From NCBI GenBank assembly GCA_041494705.1, contig JBGQBI010000001.1, positions 450,001 to 482,000 on the forward strand: a DNA stretch of 32,000 nucleotides. The letters are read 5' to 3'. Of this stretch, positions 9,239 to 25,400 are shown piece after piece. A program made the translations under genes and the position numbers. This DNA comes from Candidatus Methanoperedens sp. (GTDB lineage: Archaea > Halobacteriota > Methanosarcinia > Methanosarcinales > Methanoperedenaceae). The notes beneath the pieces were generated by a model, which worked only from the letters and a program-made list of their open reading frames with translations, had not been told where the DNA came from and did not search any database. The number at the start of each line of letters is the position of its first letter. Within the stretch, counting starts at the first letter, position 1.

Positions 9239-10033
9239 CTATGGCAGGTATCTTTTCTTTTCAGGGTTGCTGACCGAATGATTATATGGTGGCGGGGGAA
9301 GAATGGTAATATTTACAATGGTATCTGTATGACATCCTTCGCATGCCCAGTACCCTCTTGAAATGAAACCGCTTGAGCCGTTTGCATTGCCCGGCGTTCG
9401 CCCGAATGTTTCGCCTATTCCATAGTTTGAGGACAGATTGCTTGCCTGCAGATAAAATGCCTGGTGTGCGTTTGAAAGGCTTAAATTGTACCCGGCTGCC
9501 GTAATATTGGAGAAACTCCCGAGAATCAGGGGGCTGTTATCGGAATAAACCCTGTTGCCGTGACACCTGTCATCATCGCATACCCTGACTGTTGCCCCTG
9601 TATGCGTAGTTGCGCCTGCACCGAAGAGGGAAGCATTATGGCACAGCATGCATATTTCCACGCCATCTATTTGCCCGTTCCTGTTCACGTCAAGGCTGAC
9701 ATTGGCAGTTTCAAAGGGATTGCTTGAGTTATACCAGACTGTTCCATTCCACGTCCATAGAGAACCATCATATGCGGTTATCGAGCCGTTATAGGCTATT
9801 CCTCCGAGTGAAAGATATGTGGTATAATTAGTATTTCCCGCCGCAGCTTTATGTTTTTCATAAACATATCCGCTGTGTTCAACCTGCGATAATATATCAG
9901 AATGGCATTTCTCGCATGAAACACCCATCCCGCTGTAGAAAGTGTGCTGCCCTGCAAAAAGCGAGACCGTGTTCGGCATCACGTATAAACCGAATACCAT
10001 CAAAGCAAAATATAACAGGATTTTCTTATTCAT
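9239..10033 (-). CDS. Small membrane-anchored or secreted multihaem c-type cytochrome (3 CxxCH + 1 C-x4-CH)
   Basis: The ORF track extends to 10072. I prefer the ATG at 10033 (MNKKILLYFALMVFGLYV...) because it follows GGTGAT and lies 4 nt after the upstream stop. Motifs: CEKCH, CMLCH, CDDDRCH, CEGCH. N-terminal hydrophobic helix. Confidence 0.8.
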   Translation of the reverse strand: MNKKILLYFALMVFGLYVMPNTVSLFAGQHTFYSGMGVSCEKCHSDILSQVEHSGYVYEKHKAAAGNTNYTTYLSLGGIAYNGSITAYDGSLWTWNGTVWYNSSNPFETANVSLDVNRNGQIDGVEICMLCHNASLFGAGATTHTGATVRVCDDDRCHGNRVYSDNSPLILGSFSNITAAGYNLSLSNAHQAFYLQASNLSSNYGIGETFGRTPGNANGSSGFISRGYWACEGCHTDTIVNITILPPPPYNHSVSNPEKKRYLP

Positions 10034-10037
10034 ATCA

Positions 10038-10475
10038 TCACCCCGAACTGTTTGCAAAGAATTGTTTTGCATGCCTGTACAGGGTCGCTGTGTCGCTGGT
10101 TATGTAATGGGCGGACTGGTTTATGCCACTAATATTTACGCTACCGACCTGATGTATCGTGATGTTGCCGTCGTCTTCGTAATTTGAATGGCAGTTTGTA
10201 CAGTAGATATTCTTCGTAAGGTTGTGCGCTGCATTAAGATTGTATGTTTCATTGATATTCGGGTTATAACCATGGCATATACATCCCACATTGGCGTGGG
10301 CGCTCGCATTCACAATTGATACCTTGGTTGGATGACATTTGATGCAGAAATCCACTGCTGTTGTCTTATTTGTGTAAATGGTATGGCTTCCTGAGAATAT
10401 CGCATACGTTGTAAACATGGAGGCGGCTAATAATATCCCAAAGATTGCAAACAATAACAATATTTTCTTATCCAT
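10038..10475 (-). CDS. Small membrane-anchored or secreted c-type cytochrome (2 CxxCH)
   Basis: 145 aa with N-terminus MDKKILLLFAIFGILLAASMF, paralogous to the N-terminus of the downstream gene. Motifs: CIKCH and CTNCH. The start is preceded by GAGGT, which overlaps the stop of the 1514-aa gene (TGAGGTAAATATG). Confidence 0.75.
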   Translation of the reverse strand: MDKKILLLFAIFGILLAASMFTTYAIFSGSHTIYTNKTTAVDFCIKCHPTKVSIVNASAHANVGCICHGYNPNINETYNLNAAHNLTKNIYCTNCHSNYEDDGNITIHQVGSVNISGINQSAHYITSDTATLYRHAKQFFANSSG

Positions 10476-10482
10476 ATTTACC

Positions 10483-13400
10483 TCATGAATATGTCTTGTC
10501 CGGATATGTATGGCAATAATTACAATCTATAGTCTTATTGTAACCATAAGTGGCTATTGCGTTGTTATACAATGCCGAATCATGGCAAACGGTGCAGTCG
10601 GTGATATTTAAAACGTTCGTTCCATTGTAATTATACGGTATACTTGTTATGTTATGCCTGTAGTCGCTTCTCTTATCAGCCGGAATTGGAATCTGCTGCA
10701 CCACAGCATGGCAGTCCTCGCATGCTTTTCTCGCGCCGGTATTATTGTGCCCTTTGGTATGGCAGTCCTCGCATGCCAATGAACCGTGCGGGCTGCTGTT
10801 GAACATGGTTGAATTGACATATTTATCAGGTTTGTTTACACTGCTGCCGTTCATGTAGTCGTAGTTGAAGTGGCAGCTTGTGCATAACCCTGTGCTTATA
10901 TTATGCACAAATTCTTTTATATTGTCAGTAGACTGTGATTTACTATGGCAGCCCTTGCATGTGGAATCGTTATAATCAGGTGTCAGGGAGTGGTTATAAT
11001 AGCCGCTCACATTGTAAGGCGAATAGGAGGAGGAGTTTGTAATCTCAGGAGGCACTGAAAGATTGGCGCCCGTAAAGGCCAGAGTCATGTTAATGTAGTT
11101 CTTTCCGTTGTTGGAATAGCCCAGATAGTGGCATCCTGCACACCAGTTGCCATTACTGGTAATAGATGAATTCATAATGTTGCTCCCGCTCCAGTTGGAA
11201 GGTTTCCCCAGGCCTGTCGCATTATGCCTTGCGTCGCCGTGGCAATAATCGCACATGCTCTGCTGGCTGGTATTTGTCCAATACCCCTGCTGCGTGCCGT
11301 TCCAGAAAGAACCATTCAACGGGTTATCGCCGTGCTGGACTGTGGAGACTTTTGGAGGCTTATTTGAAAGAATTAAATCCAATGTATTTTGCTGGTGGCA
11401 ATCGGTGCAATTTACAGCCGTCTGGTTCGCAGTAGTGTAGTTTCCATTGGGCTGGCTATTGGGCTGGAGATAGGTCATTGGATGGATATTTGTCTTATTT
11501 GGACCTGTATGGCATTCAGTGCAATTGACCGTATTGTTGTGCATTTCTTTATATGTCGTCACTGCTCCGGTATAATTTGTGGTTCCATTTGATGTATTCA
11601 GCCCATGACAACCCAGGCAATATGAGCTATTATACAGTGTGATGTTAATATCCGGTTTAATTAATTGAGCACTATGCAGCGATGCATTTGTACTATTGTG
11701 GCATTCGCTTACGCTGCACGACGGGCTGGAGGAATTATATCTCAGGCTGTGGTTGGATATGCTTCGATTCGCAACATCCTGGAATACACCGTTGAATTCA
11801 CCTGTGCTGTTGCTGTTATGGCAATAAATACAATAATCATAACTCCCTGCAGTCTTTCCAAAGTTTGACCTGTTAGCGCCGTAATGGTAGAAGCTCGTGT
11901 TTCCTCCATTGACCCCTATTCCGTCGCTTGCATACGAGCCGTAATCCGTATCATTATTGGGTATTCTCATCCCTGATATGTTCTCATTCTCATGACATCC
12001 TATACATGAAGCGAGATCACTTGTCTTATTATCCAGCGCCCTGATATTTGTCCCGTTCCTGTAATGATTGGATATAATCGTTGCATTGTATGCTCCTGCA
12101 TTGCTTCCATTCGCAAGATGGCAGTCCGTGCAGGTGTAGGGCGTGTCTCTCTTATCCGGGTGGGTGTTGTTAGCTACTACGTAGCCGCTTGAGTTGTGAC
12201 ATGCCCAGCAGCTTGCGTTTATGCCATAGCCCGAAGCGTTGTTGCTGTTTATGTTTGCATGCACGGATATGCTGAAATTCGCGCCGTCTATGTAATGCAG
12301 GCCGGTGAAGTTCTGGGGATTGGAGTTATTATGGCAGTCAAGGCAGCCGGGACCGCCGCCGAGTACCACTTCGTTTGAATGGAAATCTACCGGCATGCTC
12401 TGGTTTCTGGTATGACAGGTATAGCACGAATTGTTGCTTATTGCGTATCTGTTCCCGAACATGTTGCTGGCGTTTACCTGCATTGCATTGCCCCATCCAT
12501 TTCTTATTGTTTCAATGCTCTGGTTGTGGCAGAACAGGCAGTTGGTGGTGTTGGGCATGCGGTCTATGGGGACTGTCCAGTGAGGTGGATCGTACTTGCC
12601 AACTGGTACAGAAGCATCGTTATACTGTGCATAGTAACCTCCGAAATTAGACTTGTTGAAATAGGGGGCTGCGTGACACGTTCCTTCTCCTGTGACTGCG
12701 TTGTAACTATAGCAGGTGGTAGAGTATGTTGCAGTGCCGCCCTGCGAGGGTACGCTTACATTAGTGCCCGTTATGTTGGAGTAATTGATATGGGAATAAA
12801 CATAGGGCAATGTATCATTTATGTCGCTCCTCAATGAATAGAAAGTGGTCCGGTTCGGGCCGGTGAAGAGACTGGTGGTGTTGGGGAGGTGGCAGTTCTC
12901 GCACAGTTTGACGCTCTGGAGGTTCGTTGCGATCGTGCCGGAGTTTGCTGAACCGTGGCAGGCATAGCACGGCTCGGAATCGCTGGGAACTGAGTTTGAT
13001 TCGTTGAAGTCATCCTGTTCCCAGTCAAAACCACGATCGTACGTAAGGGATGGGACGTCAATACCGCCGTGGATTGAATATGAATAGAACCACGGCTGAG
13101 AGTGGAATGTGTCGTTTGCGTTCGTGGATTTATTATGGCAGTTGCCACAGTCCTGGCTTTTTGCGGGATGTCTTGTGAGGTTGGCGTACCATTCCGTTGC
13201 ATTTGCAGGGGATTTGTGGCACAGCGAGCAGTTGGTGCTGTTTTTGATAAGGCTGGTGTTGGTGGCGTAGTGGGATATATTGGAATAGATTGCATCTATA
13301 GCGTCACCACCACTTATATAAAAACCACTCGTATTAAAACCGCCCATGCTTTTTATGTGGCAGGCGGCGCAATCTACCGAAGAGTTCAAGTCTGATGTAA

Positions 13401-15027
13401 TTTTGTAACCCAAACCTGCTGTGACTTCAATGGTATAATTATACGGTATGTGGTTGTATATTTTCCTCGCACTTAGGTCATTAATCCTGTCTGCATCGGT
13501 GTAGGTGAGGTTGTAGGTCGCATTATGGCATGCAACGCAGCCGGTTATTATTATTGTTGTGTTAAACTCTGTGCCGTTGGTATGGCATGCCCAGCAGGCT
13601 TTGTTCACAGGATCTGATAAAAGATTTGTTTTGTTTGCAAGATGGTTTAGATTTTGATGAGTTGCATTCGAGGACGAGTTCATTTTAGAAACATCCACTT
13701 TAGCTATCGAGTTGTTTGTGGTATTCGACACATCATGACATTTAACACAATCAGAAATATCCCCTGTGAGGTGAACTATCCCACTCTTTTTCACAAGCGA
13801 TTCCTGTCCTGTTATCGCAAAAGGGGACAGCGAACCTGTGCCGGCGCTTAACGTGCTATTTGTAATGTCCCTGATGGTTTCAAGCATCTCCCATTGTGTA
13901 ACATTCCAGTGATAGACTACAAGCGTATTTTCATTTACATTGTTGAGTTCGGCTTTGCTGTAGTGTATAGTTACTTCTGCTGATGAAAATGATATATTCT
14001 CCGCGCTAATCTCCACAAATTTTACAACCTTTCCCGGAACCGGAACTGGCACGGGGTTTTTCTTCCCGAAATCATCAAGAATGACTTTTCCTTTCCCGTG
14101 GACTGAAGCATTTTCCAGCTTCAGGGCGGCATTTTTTGTGGGGATTGCATCAATTTTAAAGGTTTTTGGATTATCCGGTGCTGCGCTGGCTACGGGTAGA
14201 AAAAAATCCAGAATTGAATAAAATATCACTGCCGGCTCGGTGATAATCGGGAAAGCCAGCCCGATTAGACCTGAGTTGTTTACCTTACGATAAGATTTGA
14301 CCAGCGAATTGTTTTCAAATATCTCTACAGTTGAATTGACAAGAGAACCCGATGTATCTATGACATTGATGTCCCACTCCGGAGAAGGAGCCACAATCGC
14401 AAAGACTGACAAAGAGTTCACCGTCGTGCCCAGGATATTATTTACCGCATCGATTTTTGTTGGCAGTTCGTTCCATACCTGCATAGCGCCATCGTACTTG
14501 TAAATAGTAAGGTTATTCACATCCAGTCCGCTCACTTCCGCATCCGTGTATTTTATTGATATATCGGCGTTAGAAAAGGAAACGCCGCTGGAATTGACTT
14601 CAACGTACTTTACCGGCGTCCCGGGCGCGGATACATTTACGCTCCCGGGCTGGTTGATACCGTAATTTTCCAGTACTACCCTTCCTTTTGGCGAATCACC
14701 TGAAATCCGAAGATTGATTGATATGCCCTTGGTTGCAAAATCATCATAACTGATTATAGTGCCAGGGATTCCGTGCCAGCTTATAAGATTGACATCCGGT
14801 TTTGGAGGGCCGCTTGATACCCCATCTCCGCTTAAAGATATTGCGCCCGTTAACGGATTTCCTGCACTGTCTGTGAATGTTATCTCGCCGCTTGTTTTTT
14901 GCGCTTCGGTATGTGTAAGTATTGGAGGAAAATACAATAAAGCCGCAGCTATGCCTGATAAAACTACAAACACAAGTATTATGAGCCTGATATTAGAGAG
15001 GCCTGCCTTATCTCTTAAAACATCCAT
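10483..15027 (-). CDS. Giant multihaem c-type cytochrome (1514 aa) with N-terminal anchor and two S-layer-type (PGF-pre-PGF-like) beta domains
   Basis: N-terminal TM/signal IRLIILVFVVLSGIAAALLY. A non-haem region (aa ~45-410) contains two related ~100-aa domains. From aa 427 on I hand-counted 26 CxxCH, plus CSVSECH (C-x4-CH) and CYSYNAVTGEGTCH (C-x11-CH). Extremely Asn/Ser/Thr rich. Confidence 0.9.
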   Translation of the reverse strand: MDVLRDKAGLSNIRLIILVFVVLSGIAAALLYFPPILTHTEAQKTSGEITFTDSAGNPLTGAISLSGDGVSSGPPKPDVNLISWHGIPGTIISYDDFATKGISINLRISGDSPKGRVVLENYGINQPGSVNVSAPGTPVKYVEVNSSGVSFSNADISIKYTDAEVSGLDVNNLTIYKYDGAMQVWNELPTKIDAVNNILGTTVNSLSVFAIVAPSPEWDINVIDTSGSLVNSTVEIFENNSLVKSYRKVNNSGLIGLAFPIITEPAVIFYSILDFFLPVASAAPDNPKTFKIDAIPTKNAALKLENASVHGKGKVILDDFGKKNPVPVPVPGKVVKFVEISAENISFSSAEVTIHYSKAELNNVNENTLVVYHWNVTQWEMLETIRDITNSTLSAGTGSLSPFAITGQESLVKKSGIVHLTGDISDCVKCHDVSNTTNNSIAKVDVSKMNSSSNATHQNLNHLANKTNLLSDPVNKACWACHTNGTEFNTTIIITGCVACHNATYNLTYTDADRINDLSARKIYNHIPYNYTIEVTAGLGYKITSDLNSSVDCAACHIKSMGGFNTSGFYISGGDAIDAIYSNISHYATNTSLIKNSTNCSLCHKSPANATEWYANLTRHPAKSQDCGNCHNKSTNANDTFHSQPWFYSYSIHGGIDVPSLTYDRGFDWEQDDFNESNSVPSDSEPCYACHGSANSGTIATNLQSVKLCENCHLPNTTSLFTGPNRTTFYSLRSDINDTLPYVYSHINYSNITGTNVSVPSQGGTATYSTTCYSYNAVTGEGTCHAAPYFNKSNFGGYYAQYNDASVPVGKYDPPHWTVPIDRMPNTTNCLFCHNQSIETIRNGWGNAMQVNASNMFGNRYAISNNSCYTCHTRNQSMPVDFHSNEVVLGGGPGCLDCHNNSNPQNFTGLHYIDGANFSISVHANINSNNASGYGINASCWACHNSSGYVVANNTHPDKRDTPYTCTDCHLANGSNAGAYNATIISNHYRNGTNIRALDNKTSDLASCIGCHENENISGMRIPNNDTDYGSYASDGIGVNGGNTSFYHYGANRSNFGKTAGSYDYCIYCHNSNSTGEFNGVFQDVANRSISNHSLRYNSSSPSCSVSECHNSTNASLHSAQLIKPDINITLYNSSYCLGCHGLNTSNGTTNYTGAVTTYKEMHNNTVNCTECHTGPNKTNIHPMTYLQPNSQPNGNYTTANQTAVNCTDCHQQNTLDLILSNKPPKVSTVQHGDNPLNGSFWNGTQQGYWTNTSQQSMCDYCHGDARHNATGLGKPSNWSGSNIMNSSITSNGNWCAGCHYLGYSNNGKNYINMTLAFTGANLSVPPEITNSSSYSPYNVSGYYNHSLTPDYNDSTCKGCHSKSQSTDNIKEFVHNISTGLCTSCHFNYDYMNGSSVNKPDKYVNSTMFNSSPHGSLACEDCHTKGHNNTGARKACEDCHAVVQQIPIPADKRSDYRHNITSIPYNYNGTNVLNITDCTVCHDSALYNNAIATYGYNKTIDCNYCHTYPDKTYS
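13807..14691 (-). repeat. Two copies of a ~100-aa beta-sandwich domain (archaeal S-layer / PGF-pre-PGF-like) within the 1514-aa cytochrome
   Basis: Copy 1 (14389-14691) reads GRVVLENYG...PVKYVEVNSSGVSFSNADISIKYTDAEVSGLDVNNLTIYKYDG..WNELPT...LSVFAIVAP. Copy 2 (13807-14097) reads GKVILDDFG...VVKFVEISAENISFSSAEVTIHYSKAELNNVNENTLVVYHWN..WEMLET...LSPFAITG. Confidence 0.6.
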
Positions 15028-15191
15028 TTTTTTGACCCTGGTTTTCTACATTGTTTTCATTCCAATCCTATTTTCCTATCACCTTAATTGTTATTTATGC
15101 GCGTTCAAAATAAATAGGTTTACATGATTTTAATTGAATGAACATAATTATCAATCAGGAACCTGGCTTTTGGTTGTATTGAATGGCATTA

Positions 15192-16028
15192 TCATGACGT
15201 TAAATAATCCGTATGACGCCCGCTATATACATACCCGACACCGAATGCGGAAAATGCAAGTATGAAGATGCTGAAAATGATTAGCCATGCAATCCTTTTT
15301 CCGGTCCATCCCGCATTCATCCGCAGGTGCAGGCAAATCCCGTATGTGAACCATGAAATCAAAGACCATGTCTCGATGGGGTCCCAGCCCCAGTACCTCC
15401 CCCATGTCTGGTTTGCCCATATAGCGCCTGCTGCTATCATGATAGTAAGGGCGAAAAATCCCAATGCCACGAAACGATACATAAGATCGTCCATTGTTCG
15501 CAAGTCGGGCAGCCTGTCGTAAAATGAATCCTGGACTCCGGTATTTAAGTGCTTCTCTTTCAATATATAAAGAGCAGCAATGCCTGCCGCTACCATTACT
15601 GACCCGAAGCCAAGACTTGCAAAACCCACATGGACTATCAGCCAGTAACTCTGGAGAGAAGCCGGTATCATCTGGATATCCCTCGAATAAGTCGAACCTA
15701 TAGCCATCATCAAAAAGGATGCGGGCAGCACTATAAATCCTGCAATCTTTATCTTTTCATATTTTTGCTGCGCGAGCAGGAATATAACTACGGAAAACCA
15801 TGCATATTTTGATAAAACCTCGTACATACTGATGTAGGGACCGTGCCCTGTTTCTATCCACCGCAGGGCTATGGAAACGCTGTGGAACAACAAGCCGATT
15901 AGGGCGCTGCTGACTGCAAGATTTATTCTTTCTTCTTTCTTGAAAACAAGGCAGTATAAGTAAACAGCCGAACTGAGCGCATAAAGCATTGCAGCGGCCA
16001 CGTACATAATCCATTCAGTCTGTCCCAT
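15192..16028 (-). CDS. ccsA: Cytochrome c biogenesis System II haem-handling protein CcsA/ResC
   Basis: 278-aa polytopic membrane protein with the tryptophan-rich WWD-type motif WGRYWGWDPIETWSLISW followed by a conserved His (CLHLR). Confidence 0.9.
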   Translation of the reverse strand: MGQTEWIMYVAAAMLYALSSAVYLYCLVFKKEERINLAVSSALIGLLFHSVSIALRWIETGHGPYISMYEVLSKYAWFSVVIFLLAQQKYEKIKIAGFIVLPASFLMMAIGSTYSRDIQMIPASLQSYWLIVHVGFASLGFGSVMVAAGIAALYILKEKHLNTGVQDSFYDRLPDLRTMDDLMYRFVALGFFALTIMIAAGAIWANQTWGRYWGWDPIETWSLISWFTYGICLHLRMNAGWTGKRIAWLIIFSIFILAFSAFGVGYVYSGRHTDYLTS

Positions 16029-17415
16029 GTAACCTCTTAATCTTATCTACAATACCTGAATATTCTTCTTCATATAAAGACCTGAACTTATCCGCCCGCC
16101 CTCCTATATAAATTTCCACTGCACCGGACTTTTCATCCCTCTTAACCTCAACCCATACCCTTTTAGGGATTATAAAGAAAGATACCATCAGGCTGAGTAT
16201 CATCAATCCGGCTCCCGCATACACAAGAGGCGTTCCGTCGTCCTTCACCACGTAGAAATTACTCCAGTATTTTATATCGTAAAAACCAAGATATTTATCA
16301 GATATTTTCACGGTCTCGTTGAGCCGCAAAGTCCCATCGTAAATCTGCTTTCCCCTGTCAAATACCCTCAAAAACATGATAGGTGTTTTTTCGGCTTCGG
16401 ATTCCATGAGTTTTCCTGTCAAAGGCGCAGTCATGTAAACCATCAATCCCCCTTCAAGCCCCGTATTCCCCATTTCAAATGATGCGACATACCTCCCGCT
16501 GTTATCGAGGTCTGATGCGGTTATATACGAGCCGGAATATACCGTCCCGTCAGGATTTTTCAACAACAGCAGCGGCGCAAGACCATAGACGTTTCCAAGA
16601 AACGTGTATCCATTATAAGTCATCATGTGATTTGAATATACGATATCAGTTTTCACTTTCTGACCATTCTCTATTATGGCAAGCTCACCTGCTGCTCCGC
16701 GAGGCGTATGTGTTTCATCCTTATAATCAGGGAAGAATCTCTCAAGAGATATACCGAATTTCCGATGTTGTTCATAAAAAAAAGGACCTTCATTGATAAA
16801 CATATAGTTCCCGTGCTCTTCTTCCATGGTCTGTCCCTCTATTAATCGCATATCCCCTTCCATCCTGCCCGTACTGCCGTAAACCGCAGCTATTATGATG
16901 AAAAGTATGCTGATGTGAAATAGCGATGTGCCCATTATCCCTAGCCTGTTTTTTTCAGCAAGAATGCAATTCTCTTCCTGCCATACCTTATATCCTGCGG
17001 ACTTAAGTAAAGAACCAGTTTCAGAAATAACACTGTTGCTATCTTTTTTTGTTTTAATTACCGAGCTGTTCTCAAGTCCGGTAATGTATGCTTTTTTTTG
17101 GAATTGTGGAGCATTGAGCCTTCGAAAAGCGTTGTTCAACATCGTTCTTGTGCAAAAAAGAGTATTGATGACAAGGAGCGCCGCTATACTTAAAAATATA
17201 AATGATGAAAAAAGATGGGTAAAACCGATTTTCTCAAAGATATCAGCCTGCTCCGGATGGGCAGACTTCCATTTATCATATACATCAGGCTTGAGCTGCG
17301 ATTGCTGGGGTACATGGGTCCCGATTATCGAAAATACGATAATAAGAGTAATAAGAACTATCGCAAGTTTTCTGGAGCTAAAAAAAGTAGCGATTTTGCC
17401 CATACTAAAATCCAT
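16015..17415 (-). CDS. resB: Cytochrome c biogenesis System II protein ResB/CcsB (Ccs1)
   Basis: 466 aa with a ResB-type N-terminus FFSSRKLAIVLITLIIVFSIIGTHVPQQ, a large soluble loop and a C-terminal TM YAGAGLMILSLMVSFFIIPKRVWVEV. It overlaps ccsA by 14 nt. Confidence 0.85.
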   Translation of the reverse strand: MDFSMGKIATFFSSRKLAIVLITLIIVFSIIGTHVPQQSQLKPDVYDKWKSAHPEQADIFEKIGFTHLFSSFIFLSIAALLVINTLFCTRTMLNNAFRRLNAPQFQKKAYITGLENSSVIKTKKDSNSVISETGSLLKSAGYKVWQEENCILAEKNRLGIMGTSLFHISILFIIIAAVYGSTGRMEGDMRLIEGQTMEEEHGNYMFINEGPFFYEQHRKFGISLERFFPDYKDETHTPRGAAGELAIIENGQKVKTDIVYSNHMMTYNGYTFLGNVYGLAPLLLLKNPDGTVYSGSYITASDLDNSGRYVASFEMGNTGLEGGLMVYMTAPLTGKLMESEAEKTPIMFLRVFDRGKQIYDGTLRLNETVKISDKYLGFYDIKYWSNFYVVKDDGTPLVYAGAGLMILSLMVSFFIIPKRVWVEVKRDEKSGAVEIYIGGRADKFRSLYEEEYSGIVDKIKRLHGTD

Positions 17416-17542
17416 TATTTTATCTTCCTGGCTTATTGTTTTTCTAATGTATTACGTTGTTCCATAGAATTGATGCGCATCTCACTATACCCTTGATAAG
17501 TAGATATAAATAACTTTGCAGATGATGTAAACGTAAACTAAA

Positions 17543-18010
17543 ATGACGCCTCTAAATAAAATAATCGTCCTGATTGCCCTGGGTTCAGTTCTCGTTTTAT
17601 CGGCTGCCTGGTGGGATTCGCAATCAGGAAACAATTCAGCTTTTATCAAACTTGGCGGTGTTTCATTTCATACATCAATAGAACCGGGAATCACAGAGGC
17701 AAAGAACTTAAGCAAACCTGTTTTCCTGTATTTCAGGTCAGAAACGTGTTACTGGTGCATAAGATTTGAAGATGAAGCCCTGTCTGATAAAAGGGTCATC
17801 GATAAACTCAATAAAAATTTTGTTCTTATATCGATAGATACATTCAAACAAAAAAATGTTTCTCTCAATCTCAATGTACGAAATACCCCGTACATGATTT
17901 TCTTTACAAAAGACGGCGAAGAGATATCAAGAATCCCGGGCTACCTGCAAACTGACGATTTCCTGGTAAAATTAGATTCCGTATCTGAAAACCTCAACCG
18001 GAGCTCTTAG
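17543..18010 (+). CDS. Membrane-anchored thioredoxin-fold protein with CYWC active site (ResA/CcsX-like candidate)
   Basis: 155 aa with an N-terminal TM IIVLIALGSVLVLSAAWW, then PVFLYFRSETCYWCIRFEDE (CxxC in thioredoxin context). Transcribed divergently from resB. Confidence 0.7.
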   Translation: MTPLNKIIVLIALGSVLVLSAAWWDSQSGNNSAFIKLGGVSFHTSIEPGITEAKNLSKPVFLYFRSETCYWCIRFEDEALSDKRVIDKLNKNFVLISIDTFKQKNVSLNLNVRNTPYMIFFTKDGEEISRIPGYLQTDDFLVKLDSVSENLNRSS

Positions 18011-19454
18011 TTGCAGTTATATATGTTTCAATAAACTTCTTAACCTGAGGTGGCATCTCCCCTTTCATCTGGTTTGAGAGGTAAGAATCGTTGATGAGCA
18101 GTCGCGTGACCTCTATCATGTAGTTTTTCTTAAAATCGCTCATCTCCTCAATCTTTTCAAGCTTTCCCATGTAAAAATCCCGGAACGCCTTTAAAAGATG
18201 TTTATTTAGCTCCTCCCGCGTCATGTTGACGGGCCTGACTATCGGTTCGATAAGATTGTATTTTGAATAATCAAATTCCTCTATATACGGCGCAAGTTCA
18301 GGATAAATATCAGAATAAGGCCATGGGGCAATTGCAAGGAAAAACGCAAGGTCAGGATTATAATACTGCGCCAGCTTACATGCCGCCTCTATGGATTCGG
18401 GCGTTTCTTCCGGCATCCCAAGGACAAAAGATGTCTCCGAAATAATCCCGGTATTGTTTATCAGGTCAATCGCTTCCCTTGACTGCCCTATCCTGATATT
18501 TTTCTGATAGCGGTCAAGTGTATCCTGGCTTGCGGATTCCGCTCCCACGTAGATATGAAGGATTCCCGCCTTTTTGTATTTATCAATTATATCCTTATCA
18601 CGCAGGATGTCGTCCACCCTTGTTTCCATCAGGAGTTCAAGGTCAAGTTCTTTCTCGATGAGCAGATCAAGGATTTTCTCCCACCGTTTGCGGTCATACG
18701 TGGGGGTTTCATCAGCTATCATGGCAACATCCACGCCATATGTGCTGTTTAAGTATTCAAGCTCGGATACGAAGTTTTCAGGGCTTCTCCCTCTCCATTT
18801 CTCCCTCCAGAAAAGACGCTGCGAACAGAAGGTGCATTTCTGGGTGCAGCCCCTTGAAGAACTCACGACTGCAAGTGTGGAATTTTTCTTTGTCTTGAAT
18901 GTATAATCCTTCCACTCTATAAGGTTCCATGCCGCAGGCATTGTGTCCAGATTTGAGATGAGAGGCCGTTCTTTCGTGCAGATGATTTTCCCATCCCGCG
19001 CATAAGCAATTCCCGGGGTATCCGGGTTTTTTTCTGCAAAAACCTGGCTTAAAAGTTCTGATGTAGTGATTTCACCTTCGCCGCGTATGATATAATCTAC
19101 TATGCTCCTCTCTTTTTGCAGGATTTCCTCCCAGCAGAAAGTGGGATGGATGCCGCCAAGGAGCGTAATTATCCCCGGATTTACCTCTTTAGCTACCTTG
19201 AGAACCGCAATAGCATCGTAAAGGCTTGATGTATATGCCGCCGTGCCCACAACATCGGGAGTGATTTCTTTTATGCGCCTTTTGATGTCATCAAAAGTAT
19301 GGTATTTTGACATCGCATCGTATATGCTGACTTCATACCCGGATTTTTGCAGGCTTCCGGCAACATAGACCATGCCAAGTGGCATCCATGTGCCTGCGGA
19401 TTCGAGTACGCCGCAGTGGTAAGGCGGTGTTATTAACAGGACTTTTTTAGACAT
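17994..19454 (-). CDS. B12-binding domain radical SAM protein (class B)
   Basis: The ORF track starts at 19517. I prefer the ATG at 19454 (MSKKVLLITPPYH...), which removes the overlap with the upstream gene. The N-terminal region looks like a Rossmann-type cobalamin domain. Radical SAM motif SSSRGCTQKCTFCS. Confidence 0.85.
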   Translation of the reverse strand: MSKKVLLITPPYHCGVLESAGTWMPLGMVYVAGSLQKSGYEVSIYDAMSKYHTFDDIKRRIKEITPDVVGTAAYTSSLYDAIAVLKVAKEVNPGIITLLGGIHPTFCWEEILQKERSIVDYIIRGEGEITTSELLSQVFAEKNPDTPGIAYARDGKIICTKERPLISNLDTMPAAWNLIEWKDYTFKTKKNSTLAVVSSSRGCTQKCTFCSQRLFWREKWRGRSPENFVSELEYLNSTYGVDVAMIADETPTYDRKRWEKILDLLIEKELDLELLMETRVDDILRDKDIIDKYKKAGILHIYVGAESASQDTLDRYQKNIRIGQSREAIDLINNTGIISETSFVLGMPEETPESIEAACKLAQYYNPDLAFFLAIAPWPYSDIYPELAPYIEEFDYSKYNLIEPIVRPVNMTREELNKHLLKAFRDFYMGKLEKIEEMSDFKKNYMIEVTRLLINDSYLSNQMKGEMPPQVKKFIETYITATKSSG

Positions 19455-19482
19455 TTGGTTTCTTTGAATACCGGTATGATAA

Positions 19483-22437
19483 TTATATTTTGTGTTTCTT
19501 CCAGAACCATAGTGCAACTATTCCTATTACCAACGAAAATGCAGCTATGTAGGTTAAATATGGTTTTGTTACTATTTTAACAATCTCTTTGCCATGAAAA
19601 CTTTTTAATTCTCCTTCAACATGGCATCCCCAGCAATCCTTATTTCCAATATTACTATGTTGCGAATCCGAAGGCAGGGCTCTGGGATTCCCCCATGCTT
19701 TTCTTATAGTTTCATTTTCCTGGATATGGCAGAAAACGCAATTTTTTGAATCCGGCATGTAATCAACAGGAGAATTCCAGTGGTAAGGGTCGCCCTTGTT
19801 AAATAATGTGCCTGTATAATTTGTATTGAAGGAAAAATAACCGCCTGCTTTTGCTTTATTCCCGAACGTCACGCCATGGCACGAACCCTGGCCGGTTGCT
19901 GCATCAAATCCGAAGCAGGAAGACCTTGTATTACCTAAAGAAGACTGGTCTGTCACATTGATGGGAGAATTATTGTAATGGGAATATACCACCGGGATAT
20001 ATTTTGTAATATCGGGCCGCACGTTAGCAAGGGGACTTAGCTCCGGGTTTACTTTTACATGGCAGTCTTCACATACATTCAATTTCGGCGATACATGCTC
20101 CGTCATTTTTACGTGGCACACCGGGCAGCTTTCATTCAGCCTGTCAGCTCCTTTTTCATTGGCATTATCCCCTTCCCAGTCAAAACTATCATGCATGAAT
20201 CCGGGTGAAAATGGCTTTTCCGGATGTTTACCGTTTGAAAAAGTAGTATTGTAATGACAGTTTTCACAATTGTTGCCAGTCGTTCCATGCCTTATTTTAT
20301 GGCATGAGGTACAATCTTCGGCCGCTGAATAAGAAGTAGAATTCACACCTGGCAATTTGTCTGCGGCTGATAGTTTCGGGGTTGTATCGCTATTATTATA
20401 TTTGCCGCCGGAATTATCCATTGTTGTCGGGAGAGACATGGTTATCCTGACCACAGCGGTTTTCATTGTTTCTGCGTTACCCGCATTATCCAAACTGAAA
20501 TATTTAATGGTATGTCCGCCTTCTTCATTAAAAGTAAGCTGTATATATGGTAAATAAGATACCTGCCCGACTCCATCCACTATGTAGTTTATTGCTTCAA
20601 CACCTGAGATATTATCAGAAGCTGTAATATTGAGAGTTACATTTGCAGTGTGCCACGTACTGTCTGAGTTATCGACCGTCTGTGGAGGGATATTATCAAT
20701 CCTGATAGTGGCAGTATGAGGTTGTTCAGCGTTCCCTGCATTATCCACACTATAATACCTGATAGTATGATTGCCTTCCCCGCTTATGGAAACGGTTGTG
20801 CCTTTCAGAGAGTATGATGTAGGAATTGGGCCATCAACGGTGTAATAAGTTTCCATTATACCTGAGCCTGCATCGCTGGCAGTAAGCATGACCGCAACGC
20901 TGCTATTATACCATTGACCATCAGCATTGTCTGACGTAAGAGGTGGGGTTTTGTCGATTTTCACCTGGCTCGGTGCTGTCTTTATCCCTTCGACATTGCC
21001 TGCTTTATCCACGCTGAAATATTTGATAGTATAAATCCCTTCATTTGAAATACTAAATGTTGTTCCTTCTGTGGAGTTTACTGTTGGTTCTGTTCCATCA
21101 ATAGTATAGTACGTGGCTGCCACCCCGCTTTCATTATCTTTCGCTGTCAATGTAACTGTAACGCTGCTATTATGCCATTGCCCGTCCACATCATCCGTGG
21201 TTGCGGGAGGTATGGTGTCCGCTGGTTTGTTATAGTAAGTATAGGCATAGATGTTCCCATTGGAATTCCCCAATATAATCTCCTTGTTGCCGTCCCCTTC
21301 CAGGTCCGCTATAGTCGCCGATGTAAACATATCATTAGCGACCCTTGTATTTTCAAGGACATTTCCCTGGTTATCCCATATATACAGGTTCCCGTATGCG
21401 TCGCCGGCTGCAATTTCCATCTTCCCGTCGCCGTTTATGTCTCCAAGCGCGAGATTACTGTCAACCCTTCCGATAGAAGAAAATTCTTTCAGGATGCCAT
21501 TCCTTATCAGATATATTTTTTTCTCATCATTTGAGGCGATTGCCGCACTAATCACGCCTGTGCCGTCTATATCGCCCGTGCCAGGAGATGCTAGGTTACT
21601 TTTTATGTTAAATTTATAAAGCTGATTACCGCTATTATCGAAAATAGATACTCCCGATGACGAAGTCACAATAATTTCATTCCTACCGCTCCCCTCAAAG
21701 TCACCGAACCTTGCGCTTCTCGCATCCCCTCCGAGATCCCTGCTCCAGAGAATTGTTCCCATAATACTATTTACTTTTATTACCCAGATTTTCCCATCTA
21801 TTGGATTTGCAGAATTGATATCCTGGGTTAAAATAACAGCCTCATCGATTCCATCCCCGTCGATATCGCCAACCGGGATTGGCGCCCTGTAATTCACAGC
21901 CTTTCCAAGCTCAAGATACCAGAGTTTATTTCCAGAGCTGTCGAATGCATACACACCTGTAGCCTGGGTTATTGATCCCAAAGACGACCCCGGAGCCGCC
22001 CCGGTAAGAATTATTCCTTCTTTTGTAATTGACGGGGAGGAAATAAGCAGATATTTTCCCGGCGTTATATTCGCAATATTATTACCCGCAGTATCCCAGA
22101 TATAAAAAGTGGCATCCGAGTAACCGGGATTACCATAAGAAATTATTTCAAGCCTGCCGCTGATATTGGCTACCAGAGGAGTTCTTGCTTCATCTGCCAG
22201 ATTTATTCCGCCGGTATTCTCCCAGTCAAGGACGCCCATATAATTGAACACTTTAATCATCCTGTTATCGGGCGCCGCTATTATCTCAGGTTTCCCGTCT
22301 CCGTCTATATCCTGTACAACTAAAAGGGATTTAATTGGGCTACCAGTATTGACAGGGAAACCTGCGTGTTGTTCTATCTTGGCAGATACTGTTGTTATCA
22401 TTAGAAACACTGTTAAAAATAAAACTAGTTTATTCAT
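19483..22437 (-). CDS. FG-GAP beta-propeller / triple Ig-like repeat / hexahaem cytochrome c fusion protein with C-terminal TM anchor
   Basis: The preferred start at 22437 (MNKLVLFLTVFLMITTVSA) is preceded by GGAGGGAGGAG and lies 1 nt after the upstream TAA. Six or more FG-GAP-like Ca-binding loops are present (DIDGDGKPEII, GDIDGDGIDEAVI, GDFEGSGRNEIIV, GDIDGTGV, GDINGDGKMEIAAG, ADLEGDGNKEIILG). Then come three ~88-aa repeats, then CTSCH, CENCH, CPVCH, CEDCH, CVFCH, CWGCH plus CFGFDAATGQGSCH. The C-terminus is IAAFSLVIGIVALWFWKKHKI. Confidence 0.9.
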   Translation of the reverse strand: MNKLVLFLTVFLMITTVSAKIEQHAGFPVNTGSPIKSLLVVQDIDGDGKPEIIAAPDNRMIKVFNYMGVLDWENTGGINLADEARTPLVANISGRLEIISYGNPGYSDATFYIWDTAGNNIANITPGKYLLISSPSITKEGIILTGAAPGSSLGSITQATGVYAFDSSGNKLWYLELGKAVNYRAPIPVGDIDGDGIDEAVILTQDINSANPIDGKIWVIKVNSIMGTILWSRDLGGDARSARFGDFEGSGRNEIIVTSSSGVSIFDNSGNQLYKFNIKSNLASPGTGDIDGTGVISAAIASNDEKKIYLIRNGILKEFSSIGRVDSNLALGDINGDGKMEIAAGDAYGNLYIWDNQGNVLENTRVANDMFTSATIADLEGDGNKEIILGNSNGNIYAYTYYNKPADTIPPATTDDVDGQWHNSSVTVTLTAKDNESGVAATYYTIDGTEPTVNSTEGTTFSISNEGIYTIKYFSVDKAGNVEGIKTAPSQVKIDKTPPLTSDNADGQWYNSSVAVMLTASDAGSGIMETYYTVDGPIPTSYSLKGTTVSISGEGNHTIRYYSVDNAGNAEQPHTATIRIDNIPPQTVDNSDSTWHTANVTLNITASDNISGVEAINYIVDGVGQVSYLPYIQLTFNEEGGHTIKYFSLDNAGNAETMKTAVVRITMSLPTTMDNSGGKYNNSDTTPKLSAADKLPGVNSTSYSAAEDCTSCHKIRHGTTGNNCENCHYNTTFSNGKHPEKPFSPGFMHDSFDWEGDNANEKGADRLNESCPVCHVKMTEHVSPKLNVCEDCHVKVNPELSPLANVRPDITKYIPVVYSHYNNSPINVTDQSSLGNTRSSCFGFDAATGQGSCHGVTFGNKAKAGGYFSFNTNYTGTLFNKGDPYHWNSPVDYMPDSKNCVFCHIQENETIRKAWGNPRALPSDSQHSNIGNKDCWGCHVEGELKSFHGKEIVKIVTKPYLTYIAAFSLVIGIVALWFWKKHKI
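20422..21219 (-). repeat. Three tandem ~88-aa (~264-nt) Ig-like domain repeats, plus a truncated fourth copy immediately downstream
   Basis: Each unit reads PP.T.D..DG.W.N..V.V.LTA.D..SG...TYYT.DG......G.T..IS.EG.HTI.Y.S.DNAGN.E. The copies are diverged at nucleotide level. A partial fourth unit (PTTMDNSGGKYNNSDTTPKLSAADKLPGV) is fused to the haem domain. Confidence 0.75.
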
Positions 22438-22438
22438 T

Positions 22439-25400
22439 TTACCTGTTTCTCCTCCCTCCAGTGCTTGGTTGAACATGGCAGCCCGTTGAGAAGCATCCGC
22501 TACTGCCTACATACATGCCTATATTTTTATCATGAAGTGTCATATTAACCTGCGGATTGGAATTATGGCATGAAGACTGGCAGGAAATCCCTGTGCTGCC
22601 CATTATATTATGACTAGATGGTAAGATTCTGGCATTTCCATAATCCTTCCCCACTGCACCTGCGTTATGGCATTTATTGCATCCAAAATTTGTTCCCGTT
22701 GTGGCTCTCGTATCGGGCAGTATGCCTGTTACTGCTGATGGCATACTTTCACCGAGTGTCCTGCTAACCACGTAATGCGATACCGAGGCGTTCTTTAATT
22801 TTTCCGCGGCATAGCCGCCATAATTAATGTTCTGGTTTGCTACTAAACTATTATTATGACATGAAACGCACGTCCTGTTAGAGTCCACGTTATCGTAAAC
22901 CACCGTGCCTGAAAATACCGAACCCGGATAATGCCGGTACACTAAAGTGGCATTGAAATTATTATTGACATGACAATACTCGCATGGTTTTGGATACTGA
23001 TAATTAACCGGATGCTTTTCCGGCTGGGTGCCATTGCCATGACATGCCCAGCAGGCTTTGTTTATCGGGTCCAATACTGAGGTGTTGGTTGCATTACTGT
23101 TAAGATTCGCATGCACGCCAAGCTTCATCGCACTAAAGTTTATCTTCCTGTCGTCCGGCGCCCCGTTTCCTGATACATCGTGACATGAAACACAATCAGG
23201 TCCGCTCGCGCTGGGTTTAAGATTGTGGCTAAAGTCAAGCGAAGTGGCGCCTGTTTTGAGCGCGCTGCCGTGGCAATTTTTACATTTAATATCATCATAT
23301 CCCGAGGAAAGCGCACCTGAATGGTTGTAGAAAGCTGTGCCATCCCTGGAAGTAAGCGGGACAAGTCCGCCCATGTTTAACACTTCAGGAGGCACCGGAT
23401 TGAGAAGGTTCCCCGAGTAATTGGGCGCATTCTTGTAATGGCAGTTGGCACACCAGTAACTTCCGTTTAAGCTCTGGTTGTTTGTATTGTTCCCCATGAT
23501 CTTTGTGATATTGCCCAGAGCTGATGCATTATGGAGGGTAATACCATGGCAGTAAACACATGCGCTCTGCGTGTCGCTGTTTGTCCAGTAACCCTGCTGC
23601 GTGCCATTCCACAGTGAACCGTTATAAGGATCGGCGCTGTGATTCATGGGCGCGGGGATTTTCGGGGCAGTGCTGAAGTTGCCAGGACCGCTCTGGTGGC
23701 ATGTGGTACAGTTTACTGCATTTGTCCTTGATGTGCTGAAGTTGGAGCCGTCCTGCTGGAGGTACCGCACCGGATGGATGCTCCTGCTATCGTTGAGATG
23801 GCAGTCTGTACAATTTACGGCATTATTGTGTGGTTGTTTAAAACCAGTTACTGCTCCTGTATAATTTGTGCCGCCGGTGCCGTTGTTGCCGTGACAGCTC
23901 AAGCATAAACGGTTATTATTCACGGGCGACGCCGGCTTGTAAAGTGTACTGTTGTGAATTCTGCCAGCCTGGGTTGCATGGCAGTCCGTACAACCCGGAT
24001 TGGAGGAGGGATAGCCGGATGAGTGGTTTGCTATCGTCTTGTTTGCATTATCGATGAACGGAAATACTGTTGTCTGGTTGTTGTGGCATTTATTACAGTA
24101 ATCGTTTGTTCCCTGTGCAGGGTAATCAGTGCGTTTCTTGCCATAATGACTTGTGCTATTGCTTCCGCCGTTTTCACCGCCGTAAACGCCTGCTGCGCCG
24201 TCAGGGTCAGGGTTTGTGCCCAGCATCATCTCAGTCCTATTATGGCAATCATAGCACGTGGTCACCGCCTCCGTTCTTATACTGGTGCCGTTCCAGTAGT
24301 GCTGGGTTACGTATGGTATTATTGCAATAAGATCTCCATACATATTATGGCATACTGCACAGCTTATACCTATGTGCCTCGTAACATGGCAATCCACACA
24401 TCTGTAGGGTGTCTTGTAATTGGATGGATGACTACTTCCCGGTTCGTTGCCGTTGCCGTGGCATGCCCAGCATTTCTTGTTCTCTGCGGGCAGGGTTGTT
24501 GTGGTTCTGCTGTTCAGGTCACTGTGGATGGCGTTTACATCGTTCATCGCACTGATATTTACAAGTTTTCCTGCACCGGCTGAGCCTCCGATGTTGTGGC
24601 AGCCTGTACAGTTGGCTCCTCCTGCCTGTCCTATACCCACATTATGGCTAAAGTTGAGAGACGTTGCCCCTGCATTGAGGTTATTATCATGGCAGTTCTT
24701 GCACGTAGCATCATCATAGCTTGTTGAGATTGCACTTGAATGGTTGTAGAATGAAGTTCCATCTTTGGAAATTACAGGGACAAGCCCGCTCTGGTTTAAC
24801 ACCTCAGGCGGCTGCTGAGTTAACAGGTTTCCTCCATAATCGGGTGCAGTCTTATAATGGCAGTTTGCACACCATCTACTTGTGGTAAGGTCCTGATTTA
24901 AACTATTCGTCCCTTTGACGTTGCTTACGCTACCCAGTGCTGAGATGCTGTGAAGAGTCGATAGACCGTGGCAGTAATAACATGCGCTCTTCTGGCTTGT
25001 ATTATCCCAGTAAGCGGATTGCAAGCCATTCCAGAGGACGCCTGCATATGGGTCTGTGCTGTGGTTCAAAGGTACTGGAATCTGTGGCGGGTTCCTGCCT
25101 GTGTAGTTGCCTGCCTTGGGCTGCGCTTTCAGAGCAGCGAAGAACGAAGCGTTCTGGTGGCAATTGGTGCAGTTGCCTCTTGCTGGATTTGGATTATTAT
25201 GATTCAAATCTACATACGTGGCGTTCTGTGCAAACACCTGTATGTCATGCACATCGTCGCTGTGGCATAGTGTGCAGTTCACGCCGCCCGATGTGGTGTT
25301 GCTTGAGTTGTGCTCGGTATTGCTTGTGTGGCAGGTTTTACATTGAGAATCTTCTGTATTACTATTCCTTATAAATCTCTGGGTTTCATCAGGTTTAGTG

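Follow-up and report, generated by a model that had tools for sequence, protein, structure and literature searches.

We analysed a stretch of 32,000 nucleotides from Candidatus Methanoperedens sp. (assembly GCA_041494705.1, contig JBGQBI010000001.1, positions 450,001 to 482,000; hereafter the window), which carries an island of multihaem cytochrome genes. Two of the encoded proteins, of 1514 and 997 amino acids (aa), contain an atypical motif in which eleven residues separate a cysteine from a Cys-His pair (CX11CH). Judging from its conservation across a family of archaeal cytochromes and from a structure model, this motif is very probably a genuine extended haem c site. The fuller explanation, which we consider likely, is that the site belongs to an electron-relay module and that the System II for cytochrome c biogenesis that is encoded in the same island is its probable maturase.

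The CX11CH motif is as conserved as canonical haem motifs

An earlier note on the window had reported the two peptides with the same eleven-residue spacing, and translation confirms both. The minus-strand translation of positions 12640-12750 contains YSTTCYSYNAVTGEGTCHAAPYF (fuller readout TTCYSYNAVTGEGTCHAAPYF) and that of positions 19840-19950 contains TRSSCFGFDAATGQGSCHGVTF (fuller readout SSCFGFDAATGQGSCHGVTF), with a histidine directly after the second cysteine in each case. The second motif lies in the seven-haem domain of the 997-aa protein, of which SSCFGFDAATGQGSCHGV is a stretch that spans it. Every cysteine of the two proteins, 56 in the 1514-aa protein and 14 in the 997-aa protein, belongs to a C-x(n)-CH motif. 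It should be noted that the bare pattern is neither rare nor significant by itself: a six-frame scan of the window found ten C-x7-11-CH strings, eight of them in frames or strands other than those of the two motifs. The meaning of the motif therefore hangs on its conservation.

The two modules of the window that carry the motif are paralogous, about 230 residues long and 35% identical, with the common pattern FDWE...CxxCH...CxxCH...YSH...C-x11-CH...GGY...HW...CxFCHxQ...IR..WGN...CxxCH...FH. A word-indexed search with the module alignment returned 47 proteins, chiefly of about 300 aa, from Candidatus Methanoperedens and anaerobic methanotrophic (ANME) archaea; these relatives have six CXXCH motifs, one C-x11-CH motif, exactly 14 cysteines and none outside the motifs. 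The module is rare, since an exhaustive HMMER search of 1.84 billion cluster representatives yielded 67 clusters; all named sources of the matches were archaeal, and every full-length match kept C...CH. In a 44-sequence alignment (26-43% identity) the two cysteines and the histidine were invariant (44/44), the other invariant columns being four CXXCH motifs, one proline and one glutamine. A larger alignment, of 74 sequences that are 28-83% identical to the reference, has C166, C178 and H179 (domain numbering) in 74/74. In strictness of conservation, these three residues equal the canonical CXXCH motifs in the core of the module.

Spacer length is nearly fixed. Among the 93 module copies that span the site, 84 have x11, five have x7 to x10 and four have no long motif. 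Counted over all retrieved sequences, the x11 spacer occurs 88 times, CX10CH twice, and CX9CH, CX8CH and CX7CH once each; one unrelated CX18CH lies elsewhere in a giant protein. The shorter spacers retain the residues beside the cysteines and have lost residues from the middle. The spacer consensus in the 74-sequence alignment, [FYL]-G-[FYW]-[ND]-x-x-T-G-E-G-[ST] followed by CH-G-V, is unusually conserved. An N-glycosylation sequon as the cause of this loop conservation was rejected, because part of the family has no N-x-S/T.

The four copies without a long motif are secondary paralogous modules within multi-module proteins. In two of them (P0050 and P0066) a canonical CAICH or CVECH was profile-aligned onto the Cys-His of CX11CH, with the signature CxYCHxQ..TIR..WG still present downstream; for the remaining two no alignment was obtained. 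An ordinary CXXCH at the same position in sister modules is the strongest single argument that CX11CH is a haem site. The earlier note had proposed an unconventional haem-binding site, to be checked by aligning homologues. That alignment shows both cysteines, the histidine and the eleven-residue spacing kept family-wide, with the first cysteine invariant, and the prediction is supported by this conservation, by the CXXCH at the aligned position in two of the four copies and by the hairpin modelled below. The same note had listed CFNTTVCH and CFSTGCH of the 1697-aa cytochrome as shorter variants of the motif. Both are present in that open reading frame (ORF), as a CX5CH at residue 647 and a CX4CH at residue 1680; homology to CX11CH was not established, the profile alignments to the remainder of the 1514-aa and 1697-aa proteins being weak and ambiguous, and we do not claim them as positional equivalents.

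The motif would bridge a break in the haem chain and is modelled as a hairpin

Residues 684-879 of the 1514-aa protein match PF22113 (the pentahaem domain II/IV of MtrC and MtrF) with 102.3 bits against a gathering score of 30, over profile positions 6-170 of 176. This stretch holds five haem motifs, of which CX11CH is the third and the other four are CXXCH; the 1697-aa protein also contains a PF22113 region, whose five motifs are all plain CXXCH. Successive motifs are 17-63 residues apart throughout the rest of the 1514-aa protein. Removal of CX11CH would leave a haem-free stretch of 121 residues in this protein and of 111 residues in the 997-aa protein. In addition to its seven motif histidines, the seven-haem domain has five strongly conserved non-motif histidines (42, 63, 74, 145 and 273 in domain numbering) and two further, moderately conserved His or His/Met columns (211 and 251/252). 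The total of 14 would match the axial ligands of seven six-coordinate haems, which is suggestive only.

An AlphaFold model of the 1514-aa module, based on the 44-sequence alignment, was unusable (predicted local distance difference test score, pLDDT, of 45) and was replaced by a model of the seven-haem domain of the 997-aa protein based on the 74-sequence alignment. The latter has a mean pLDDT of 81 and a predicted template modelling score of 0.77, with a pLDDT of about 95 over residues 161-180 in the motif region. Between C166 and C178 the model, which is without haem, has strands at 167-170 and 175-178, so that the spacer is predicted with high confidence to form a tight beta-hairpin with a four-residue turn. 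The cysteine pair would then lie diagonally across the hairpin base, about as far apart as the cysteines of a CXXCH turn.

Two observations weigh against a seventh haem: two of the seven putative distal-ligand columns are only about 57-72% conserved, and a profile search of all PDB chains with E-values up to 10 found no related solved structure, the matches being generic CXXCH noise (best E-value 0.035). A Foldseek comparison of the domain model with the PDB gave 0 matches, and homology to the structures of MccA, OmcZ or MtrC was rejected at the sensitivity of the profile search.

Based on the present data, we propose that CX11CH is haem site 3 of 5 in a pentahaem module of about 230 residues, carried by multihaem cytochromes of Methanoperedens, of ANME-2 and related Methanosarcinales, and of Hydrothermarchaeales. 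Both cysteines would form thioether bonds and the adjacent histidine would be the proximal iron ligand, the eleven-residue hairpin returning the chain such that both thiols can reach one haem. This haem would bridge the break of 111-121 residues in the haem wire. A C-terminal helix tethers the domain to the membrane in the 997-aa protein and in its orthologues of about 300 aa, so that its probable role is to pass electrons on from there to the co-encoded giant extracellular cytochromes.

System II genes accompany the module in six Methanoperedens loci

The earlier note had assigned two genes of the island to ResB and CcsA and had suggested that maturation of the CX11CH site may explain their presence. 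The assignments are borne out by matches to PF05140 and PF01578 (Table 1), CcsA also exceeding the NCBIfam equivalog cut-off (TIGR03144, 200.6 bits versus 187.6). A neighbouring gene on the opposite strand encodes a thioredoxin-like protein of 155 aa with an N-terminal helix, whose NCBIfam matches of the DsbD/DsbH type are far below their cut-offs. The order on the minus strand is: 1697-aa cytochrome, 997-aa propeller cytochrome, radical S-adenosylmethionine (SAM) protein, (opposite-strand thioredoxin,) ResB, CcsA, 1514-aa cytochrome, 145-aa cytochrome and 277-aa cytochrome. Five other Methanoperedens loci (L006, L010, L011, L014 and L015) have the same order, including the opposite-strand thioredoxin-like gene, with a free-standing seven-haem CX11CH cytochrome of about 300 aa replacing the fusion and a second CX11CH module in the giant cytochrome that closes the cluster. 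System II genes are thus found between two CX11CH-bearing genes in six Methanoperedens loci including the window. In the ANME-2 genome bin B4-03, the module is located on contig L016 and ResB-CcsA-radical SAM on contig L102.

In Methanoperedens, the thioredoxin would keep the cysteines reduced while ResB and CcsA probably export and ligate the haem. Since Ccm has been reported as the general system of ANME-2d (PMC9012536), this System II would be an additional one. That the island's System II acts on the cytochromes of the cluster is, on balance, probable. That the CX11CH site specifically requires it is doubtful. The explanation offered in the earlier note gains from the synteny of the six loci and the co-occurrence in B4-03, and it is weakened in three ways: by module loci without System II, by bacteria-like gene sets without CX11CH, and by the reported heterologous maturation of OmcZ.

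The following details count against a dedicated lyase. Loci L001-L003 and L017 have the radical SAM gene directly followed by a giant cytochrome gene, with thioredoxin, ResB and CcsA genes absent between them. No ResB/CcsA was found within the available flank of the module in Methanoperedens loci L004, L008 and L012, in the ANME-2/Methanosarcinales loci L013, L016 and L018, or in L019-L021 from Hydrothermarchaeales and relatives, and the available flanks of all these loci were also without radical SAM and thioredoxin genes; L019, which has three modules, offers full flanks of 10 kilobases (kb) on both sides. Conversely, bacteria-like contigs that carry ResB/CcsA/radical SAM were without any CX11CH module. 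Within the island itself, about 78 canonical and eight other non-canonical sites (CXCH, CX3CH, four CX4CH, CX5CH and C-x4-C-x3-H) could be served by System II. Lastly, the CX14CH cytochrome OmcZ has been reported as produced in a heterologous host from a lyase-free cluster (PMC11208441).

These findings bring close to an even chance the alternative that CX11CH is a haem site without a dedicated lyase, matured by Ccm or a CcmF paralogue, with System II present for the large cytochromes or the haem load. Extended motifs in ANME giant cytochromes have indeed been linked to CcmF paralogues, which were suggested to handle them (Chadwick et al. 2022, PMC9012536), and in bacteria-like contigs the ResB/CcsA/radical SAM set stands beside ordinary 23-haem cytochromes. 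This alternative has to account for the placement of System II exactly between two CX11CH genes in the six Methanoperedens loci. Moreover, the long-spacer sites of MccA (CX15CH, with CcsA1, in Wolinella) and of SirA in Shewanella reportedly needed dedicated components.

A BchE-like radical SAM gene is the neighbour with the tightest linkage

Of the 21 loci anchored on the module, 11 have the radical SAM gene, which was absent from the earlier note, directly behind the CX11CH cytochrome gene, and loci without ResB/CcsA are among these. The product of the radical SAM gene aligns over nearly its full length with TIGR02026 (BchE), scoring 401.3 bits against an equivalog cut-off of 481.35, by which it is classed as a BchE-like paralogue and not as BchE. 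The ORF as listed has a TTG start and overlaps the end of the 997-aa gene. Given that its homologues are 480-495 aa long and cover 94-96% of the query, the probable true start is an ATG that follows 21 codons later (MSKKVLLITPPYH, near 19454) and gives a protein of 486 aa, a length shared by homologues.

The genes of L006, L010, L011, L014 and L015 are 80-92% identical to that of the window. Many orthologues are found in Methanoperedens; identity is 70-72% in ANME-2 and 51-66% on contigs whose names are bacterial or whose gene content is bacteria-like. A CcsA-anchored metagenome scan, dominated by bacterial CcsA, recovered one close relative (70% identity, on a 1.6-kb contig) and exposed the pairing of CcsA and radical SAM in L026 and L031. 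In all contexts examined outside Methanoperedens (L026, L031, L102 and L103-L106), ResB and CcsA are located within about 10 kb of the radical SAM gene, as are multihaem cytochromes save in the truncated ANME-2 locus L102. The order in L026 and L031 is cytochrome, ResB, CcsA, radical SAM. Some cytochromes of the bacteria-like loci are fully canonical, for example those with 23 haems, and others are rich in odd motifs (CXCH, CX3CH, CX4CH, CX6CH, CX7CH, CX10CH and C-x4-6-C-x2-3-H). As these loci lack the module, the conserved unit of ResB, CcsA and BchE-like radical SAM is older and broader than the CX11CH module, which on this comparison became its neighbour in Methanoperedens. That the radical SAM gene is conserved beside ResB/CcsA and cytochromes suggests that it has a role, so far undescribed, in the maturation of haem or of cytochrome c.

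L103 (1-11482) and L104 (1-11467), both bacteria-like, have a larger cluster in which genes for ResB, a SPASM-type radical SAM protein, B12-binding/radical SAM proteins (three or four) and CcsA precede those for 23-haem cytochromes and NHL/beta-propeller proteins. This looks like a tetrapyrrole-modification and export cluster.

It is conceivable that the hairpin or its haem is the substrate of the BchE-like enzyme, resulting in a modified haem, a cross-link or a methylation. The linkage in 11 of 21 loci, some of them without ResB/CcsA, would fit this, as would the near-full-length relationship to the tetrapyrrole cyclase BchE and the relatives of 51-72% identity that accompany ResB/CcsA and cytochromes in ANME-2 and on six bacteria-like contigs. 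We nonetheless consider it unlikely, because the score is under the BchE cut-off and substrates of B12 radical SAM enzymes are very diverse, the bacteria-like clusters have the gene without the module, the Hydrothermarchaeales module loci have no such gene in their 10-kb flanks, and no known chemistry links enzyme and site. The broader idea that radical SAM, thioredoxin and ResB/CcsA form an undescribed maturation pathway in ANME-2, Methanoperedens and some bacteria, which puts a modified haem, or a cross-link or methyl group made by radical chemistry, into odd sites, is similarly improbable. If it were true, the targets would be the CX11CH hairpin, the contracted CICH and the WWGC-xn-C-x2-3-H motif described below, and each of these sites would be a node with a special function in the extracellular electron conduit.

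Explanations without a regular haem attachment

The two cysteines could instead form a structural disulfide that staples the hairpin, the histidine serving as distal ligand of a neighbouring haem and no haem being bound here. The modelled hairpin brings both cysteines near each other in an arrangement that a disulfide would fit as well, and the loop residues are unusually conserved, as would be expected for a structural or recognition element. What makes this very unlikely is the invariant Cys-His adjacency (74/74), together with the replacement by a canonical CXXCH on the same Cys-His in two of four paralogous copies. Furthermore, the family is without other non-motif cysteines, loss of the haem would leave the wire gap of 111-121 residues, and the histidine count fits seven haems rather than six. 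A putative thioredoxin-type reductase is also co-encoded, and the hosts are strict anaerobes.

Attachment of the haem through the second cysteine alone, by a single thioether as in the AXXCH-type cytochromes that occur in nature, with the first cysteine 12 residues off and free or binding a metal or substrate, is less likely still, because the first cysteine is invariant across spacer lengths 7-11, is brought back toward the second by the hairpin, and has its place taken by the first cysteine of a CXXCH in two of the four copies that lack a long motif.

Other features of the cytochrome island

The coordinates of the features discussed are collected in Table 1. A Borg extrachromosomal origin of the window was rejected on the basis of its housekeeping genes and its GC content of 44.8%.

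Table 1. Features of the cytochrome island and related radical SAM genes. Positions refer to the window unless a locus is named.
Feature	Position	Strand	Remarks
CX11CH motif CYSYNAVTGEGTCH	12673..12714	minus	Residues 772-785 of the 1514-aa cytochrome; proposed haem site 3 of the module
CX11CH motif CFGFDAATGQGSCH	19876..19917	minus	Residues 854-867 of the 997-aa protein
Pentahaem module of the 1514-aa protein	12340..13065	minus	Residues 655-896: CXXCH, CXXCH, CX11CH, CXXCH, CXXCH; PF22113 match
1514-aa multihaem cytochrome	10483..15027	minus	26 CXXCH, 1 CX4CH, 1 CX11CH; N-terminal membrane anchor
997-aa fusion	19483..22476	minus	Signal peptide, FG-GAP beta-propeller, immunoglobulin (Ig)-like repeats, seven-haem CX11CH domain, C-terminal helix
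Seven-haem domain of the 997-aa protein	19552..20412	minus	6 CXXCH + CX11CH; C-terminal membrane helix behind
CcsA/ResC haem lyase subunit	15192..16028	minus	PF01578, 140 bits; tryptophan-rich WGRYWGWDPIETW and flanking His
ResB/CcsB, cytochrome c biogenesis System II	16015..17415	minus	PF05140, 188 bits
Membrane-anchored thioredoxin-like protein	17543..18010	plus	CYWC active site; putative ResA/CcsX/DsbD-like thiol reductase
BchE-like B12-binding radical SAM protein	17994..19517	minus	PF02310, PF04055; tightest-linked neighbour of the CX11CH cytochrome gene
Radical SAM relatives	L026 11245-12759; L031 10809-12281; L102 10001-11449		Also L103-L106
145-aa trihaem cytochrome	10038..10475	minus	Contracted CICH; conserved downstream partner of CX11CH cytochromes
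1697-aa multihaem cytochrome	22439..27532	minus	Upstream, same operon-like array; 26 CXXCH, CX3CH, two CX4CH, CX5CH, WWGC-x4-C-x3-H

Both CX11CH proteins have an N-terminal hydrophobic signal or anchor, and the 997-aa protein has a C-terminal helix (assigned by eye from the sequence), in keeping with export to the outer membrane face, as haem c attachment demands. The seven-haem domain of the latter is orthologous to the free-standing cytochromes of about 300 aa in other Methanoperedens. The fusion may be lineage-specific and add a binding or adhesion head; its three Ig-like repeats are of the chitobiase C-terminal/Fn3-associated type.

Non-canonical haem motifs are enriched in the island (9239-27532, minus strand): next to 63 CXXCH, it has CX11CH twice, CX4CH four times, and CX5CH, CX3CH and CXCH once each. 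The contracted motif of the 145-aa cytochrome reads C-I-C-H-G-Y (at about 10272-10283, minus strand) and is invariant in the Hydrothermarchaeales orthologues (L019 11097-11729 and L020 1174-1686; 43-53% identity). In all three cases (window, L019 and L020) this gene is located directly downstream of a CX11CH-module cytochrome gene. Another motif with a displaced histidine, NWWGC-x4-7-C-x2-3-H, opens the haem region of the giant cytochrome (window about 25860-25903, minus strand; residues 548-557 of the 1697-aa protein) and is kept in the Methanoperedens homologues of L001, L006, L010, L014 and L017. Similar C-x4-6-C-x2-3-H motifs occur near cytochrome C-termini in L026, L031 and L106 (CYSTVTGCSAH, CYSTVSGCTTH and CYATPCRGSH).

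The window cytochromes are very rich in N-x-S/T sequons. In L004/L005 (7485-10924) a seven-haem CX11CH paralogue lies directly downstream of AglB (STT3 oligosaccharyltransferase) and a glycosyltransferase block.

Significance and comparison with known systems

Haem counts in ANME and Methanoperedens cytochromes have been made by counting CXXCH motifs, by which the strictly conserved CX11CH site is missed, and with it a haem that probably bridges a gap in an electron wire. With nearly 90 natural sequence variants and spacer lengths of x7 to x11, the 14-residue hairpin should be useful for studying haem lyase recognition. The pairing of System II with a BchE-like radical SAM protein, in archaea and on bacteria-like contigs alike, points to a step in the maturation of cytochrome c that has yet to be explored.

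Extended haem c motifs are known as a class, the established ones being CX3CH, CX4CH, the CX14CH of OmcZ and the CX15CH/CX17CH of MccA. Those recorded for Methanoperedens by Arshad et al. (PMC4683180) are limited to CX3CH and CX4CH. 'CX11CH' itself is a list item in two reviews, cited to the MccA paper (reference 8 in PMC11492766). Our literature search found no account of the module family or of the hairpin motif, nothing on ResB/CcsA (System II) in Methanoperedens or other methane-oxidising archaea, and nothing on BchE-like enzymes with cytochrome c biogenesis. In the literature found, this conserved hairpin module is thus apparently undescribed.

A close parallel is MccA, the octahaem sulfite reductase of Wolinella succinogenes, whose haem 8 has a CX15CH/CX17CH motif. 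There too, a long spacer between the cysteines is followed by a histidine, and a System II lyase gene (CcsA1) is encoded beside the cytochrome, as it is here in six Methanoperedens loci. No sequence relationship was detected in the profile search of all PDB chains, however, and the MccA site belongs to the active-site region of an enzyme whereas the CX11CH site would belong to an electron-wire module. In addition, ResB and CcsA are separate proteins here, thioredoxin and radical SAM genes are part of the cluster, and the lyase link is drawn from synteny.

OmcZ, the nanowire cytochrome of Geobacter sulfurreducens (PDB 7LQ5), shares an extended CXnCH motif in an extracellular electron-transfer cytochrome, and OmcZ-like genes have been reported in Methanoperedens; its extra residues form a loop outside the haem core (PMC11208441). 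The two are not homologous by profile, no OmcZ chain having been recovered from the PDB. The OmcZ loop is described as solvent-exposed and is absent in some homologues, while the CX11CH loop is a conserved, predicted hairpin of near-fixed length.

MtrC and MtrF share the PF22113 domain, which our module matches far above the gathering score with five haem motifs, but the canonical domain has five CXXCH whereas here CX11CH is the third. The module profile recovered no MtrC, MtrF or OmcA chain from the PDB, which makes the relationship through PF22113 a distant one. Cytochrome c3-type proteins and Methanoperedens cytochromes have CX3CH and CX4CH sites, which also occur in the island and are likewise extended, albeit slightly; in contrast, the CX11CH spacer is far longer, with its own predicted secondary structure and a conserved sequence signature. 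The contracted CICH of the 145-aa neighbour resembles the CXCH of a multihaem cytochrome from Kuenenia (Ferousi et al. 2019, as cited in PMC11492766), which belongs to a different protein family; the likeness matters here only in that CICH is another non-standard motif of this conserved neighbourhood. Finally, the CcmF2 paralogue beside ANME MHC-B (Chadwick et al. 2022) belongs to System I, whereas the island described here combines a complete System II with a BchE-like radical SAM protein.

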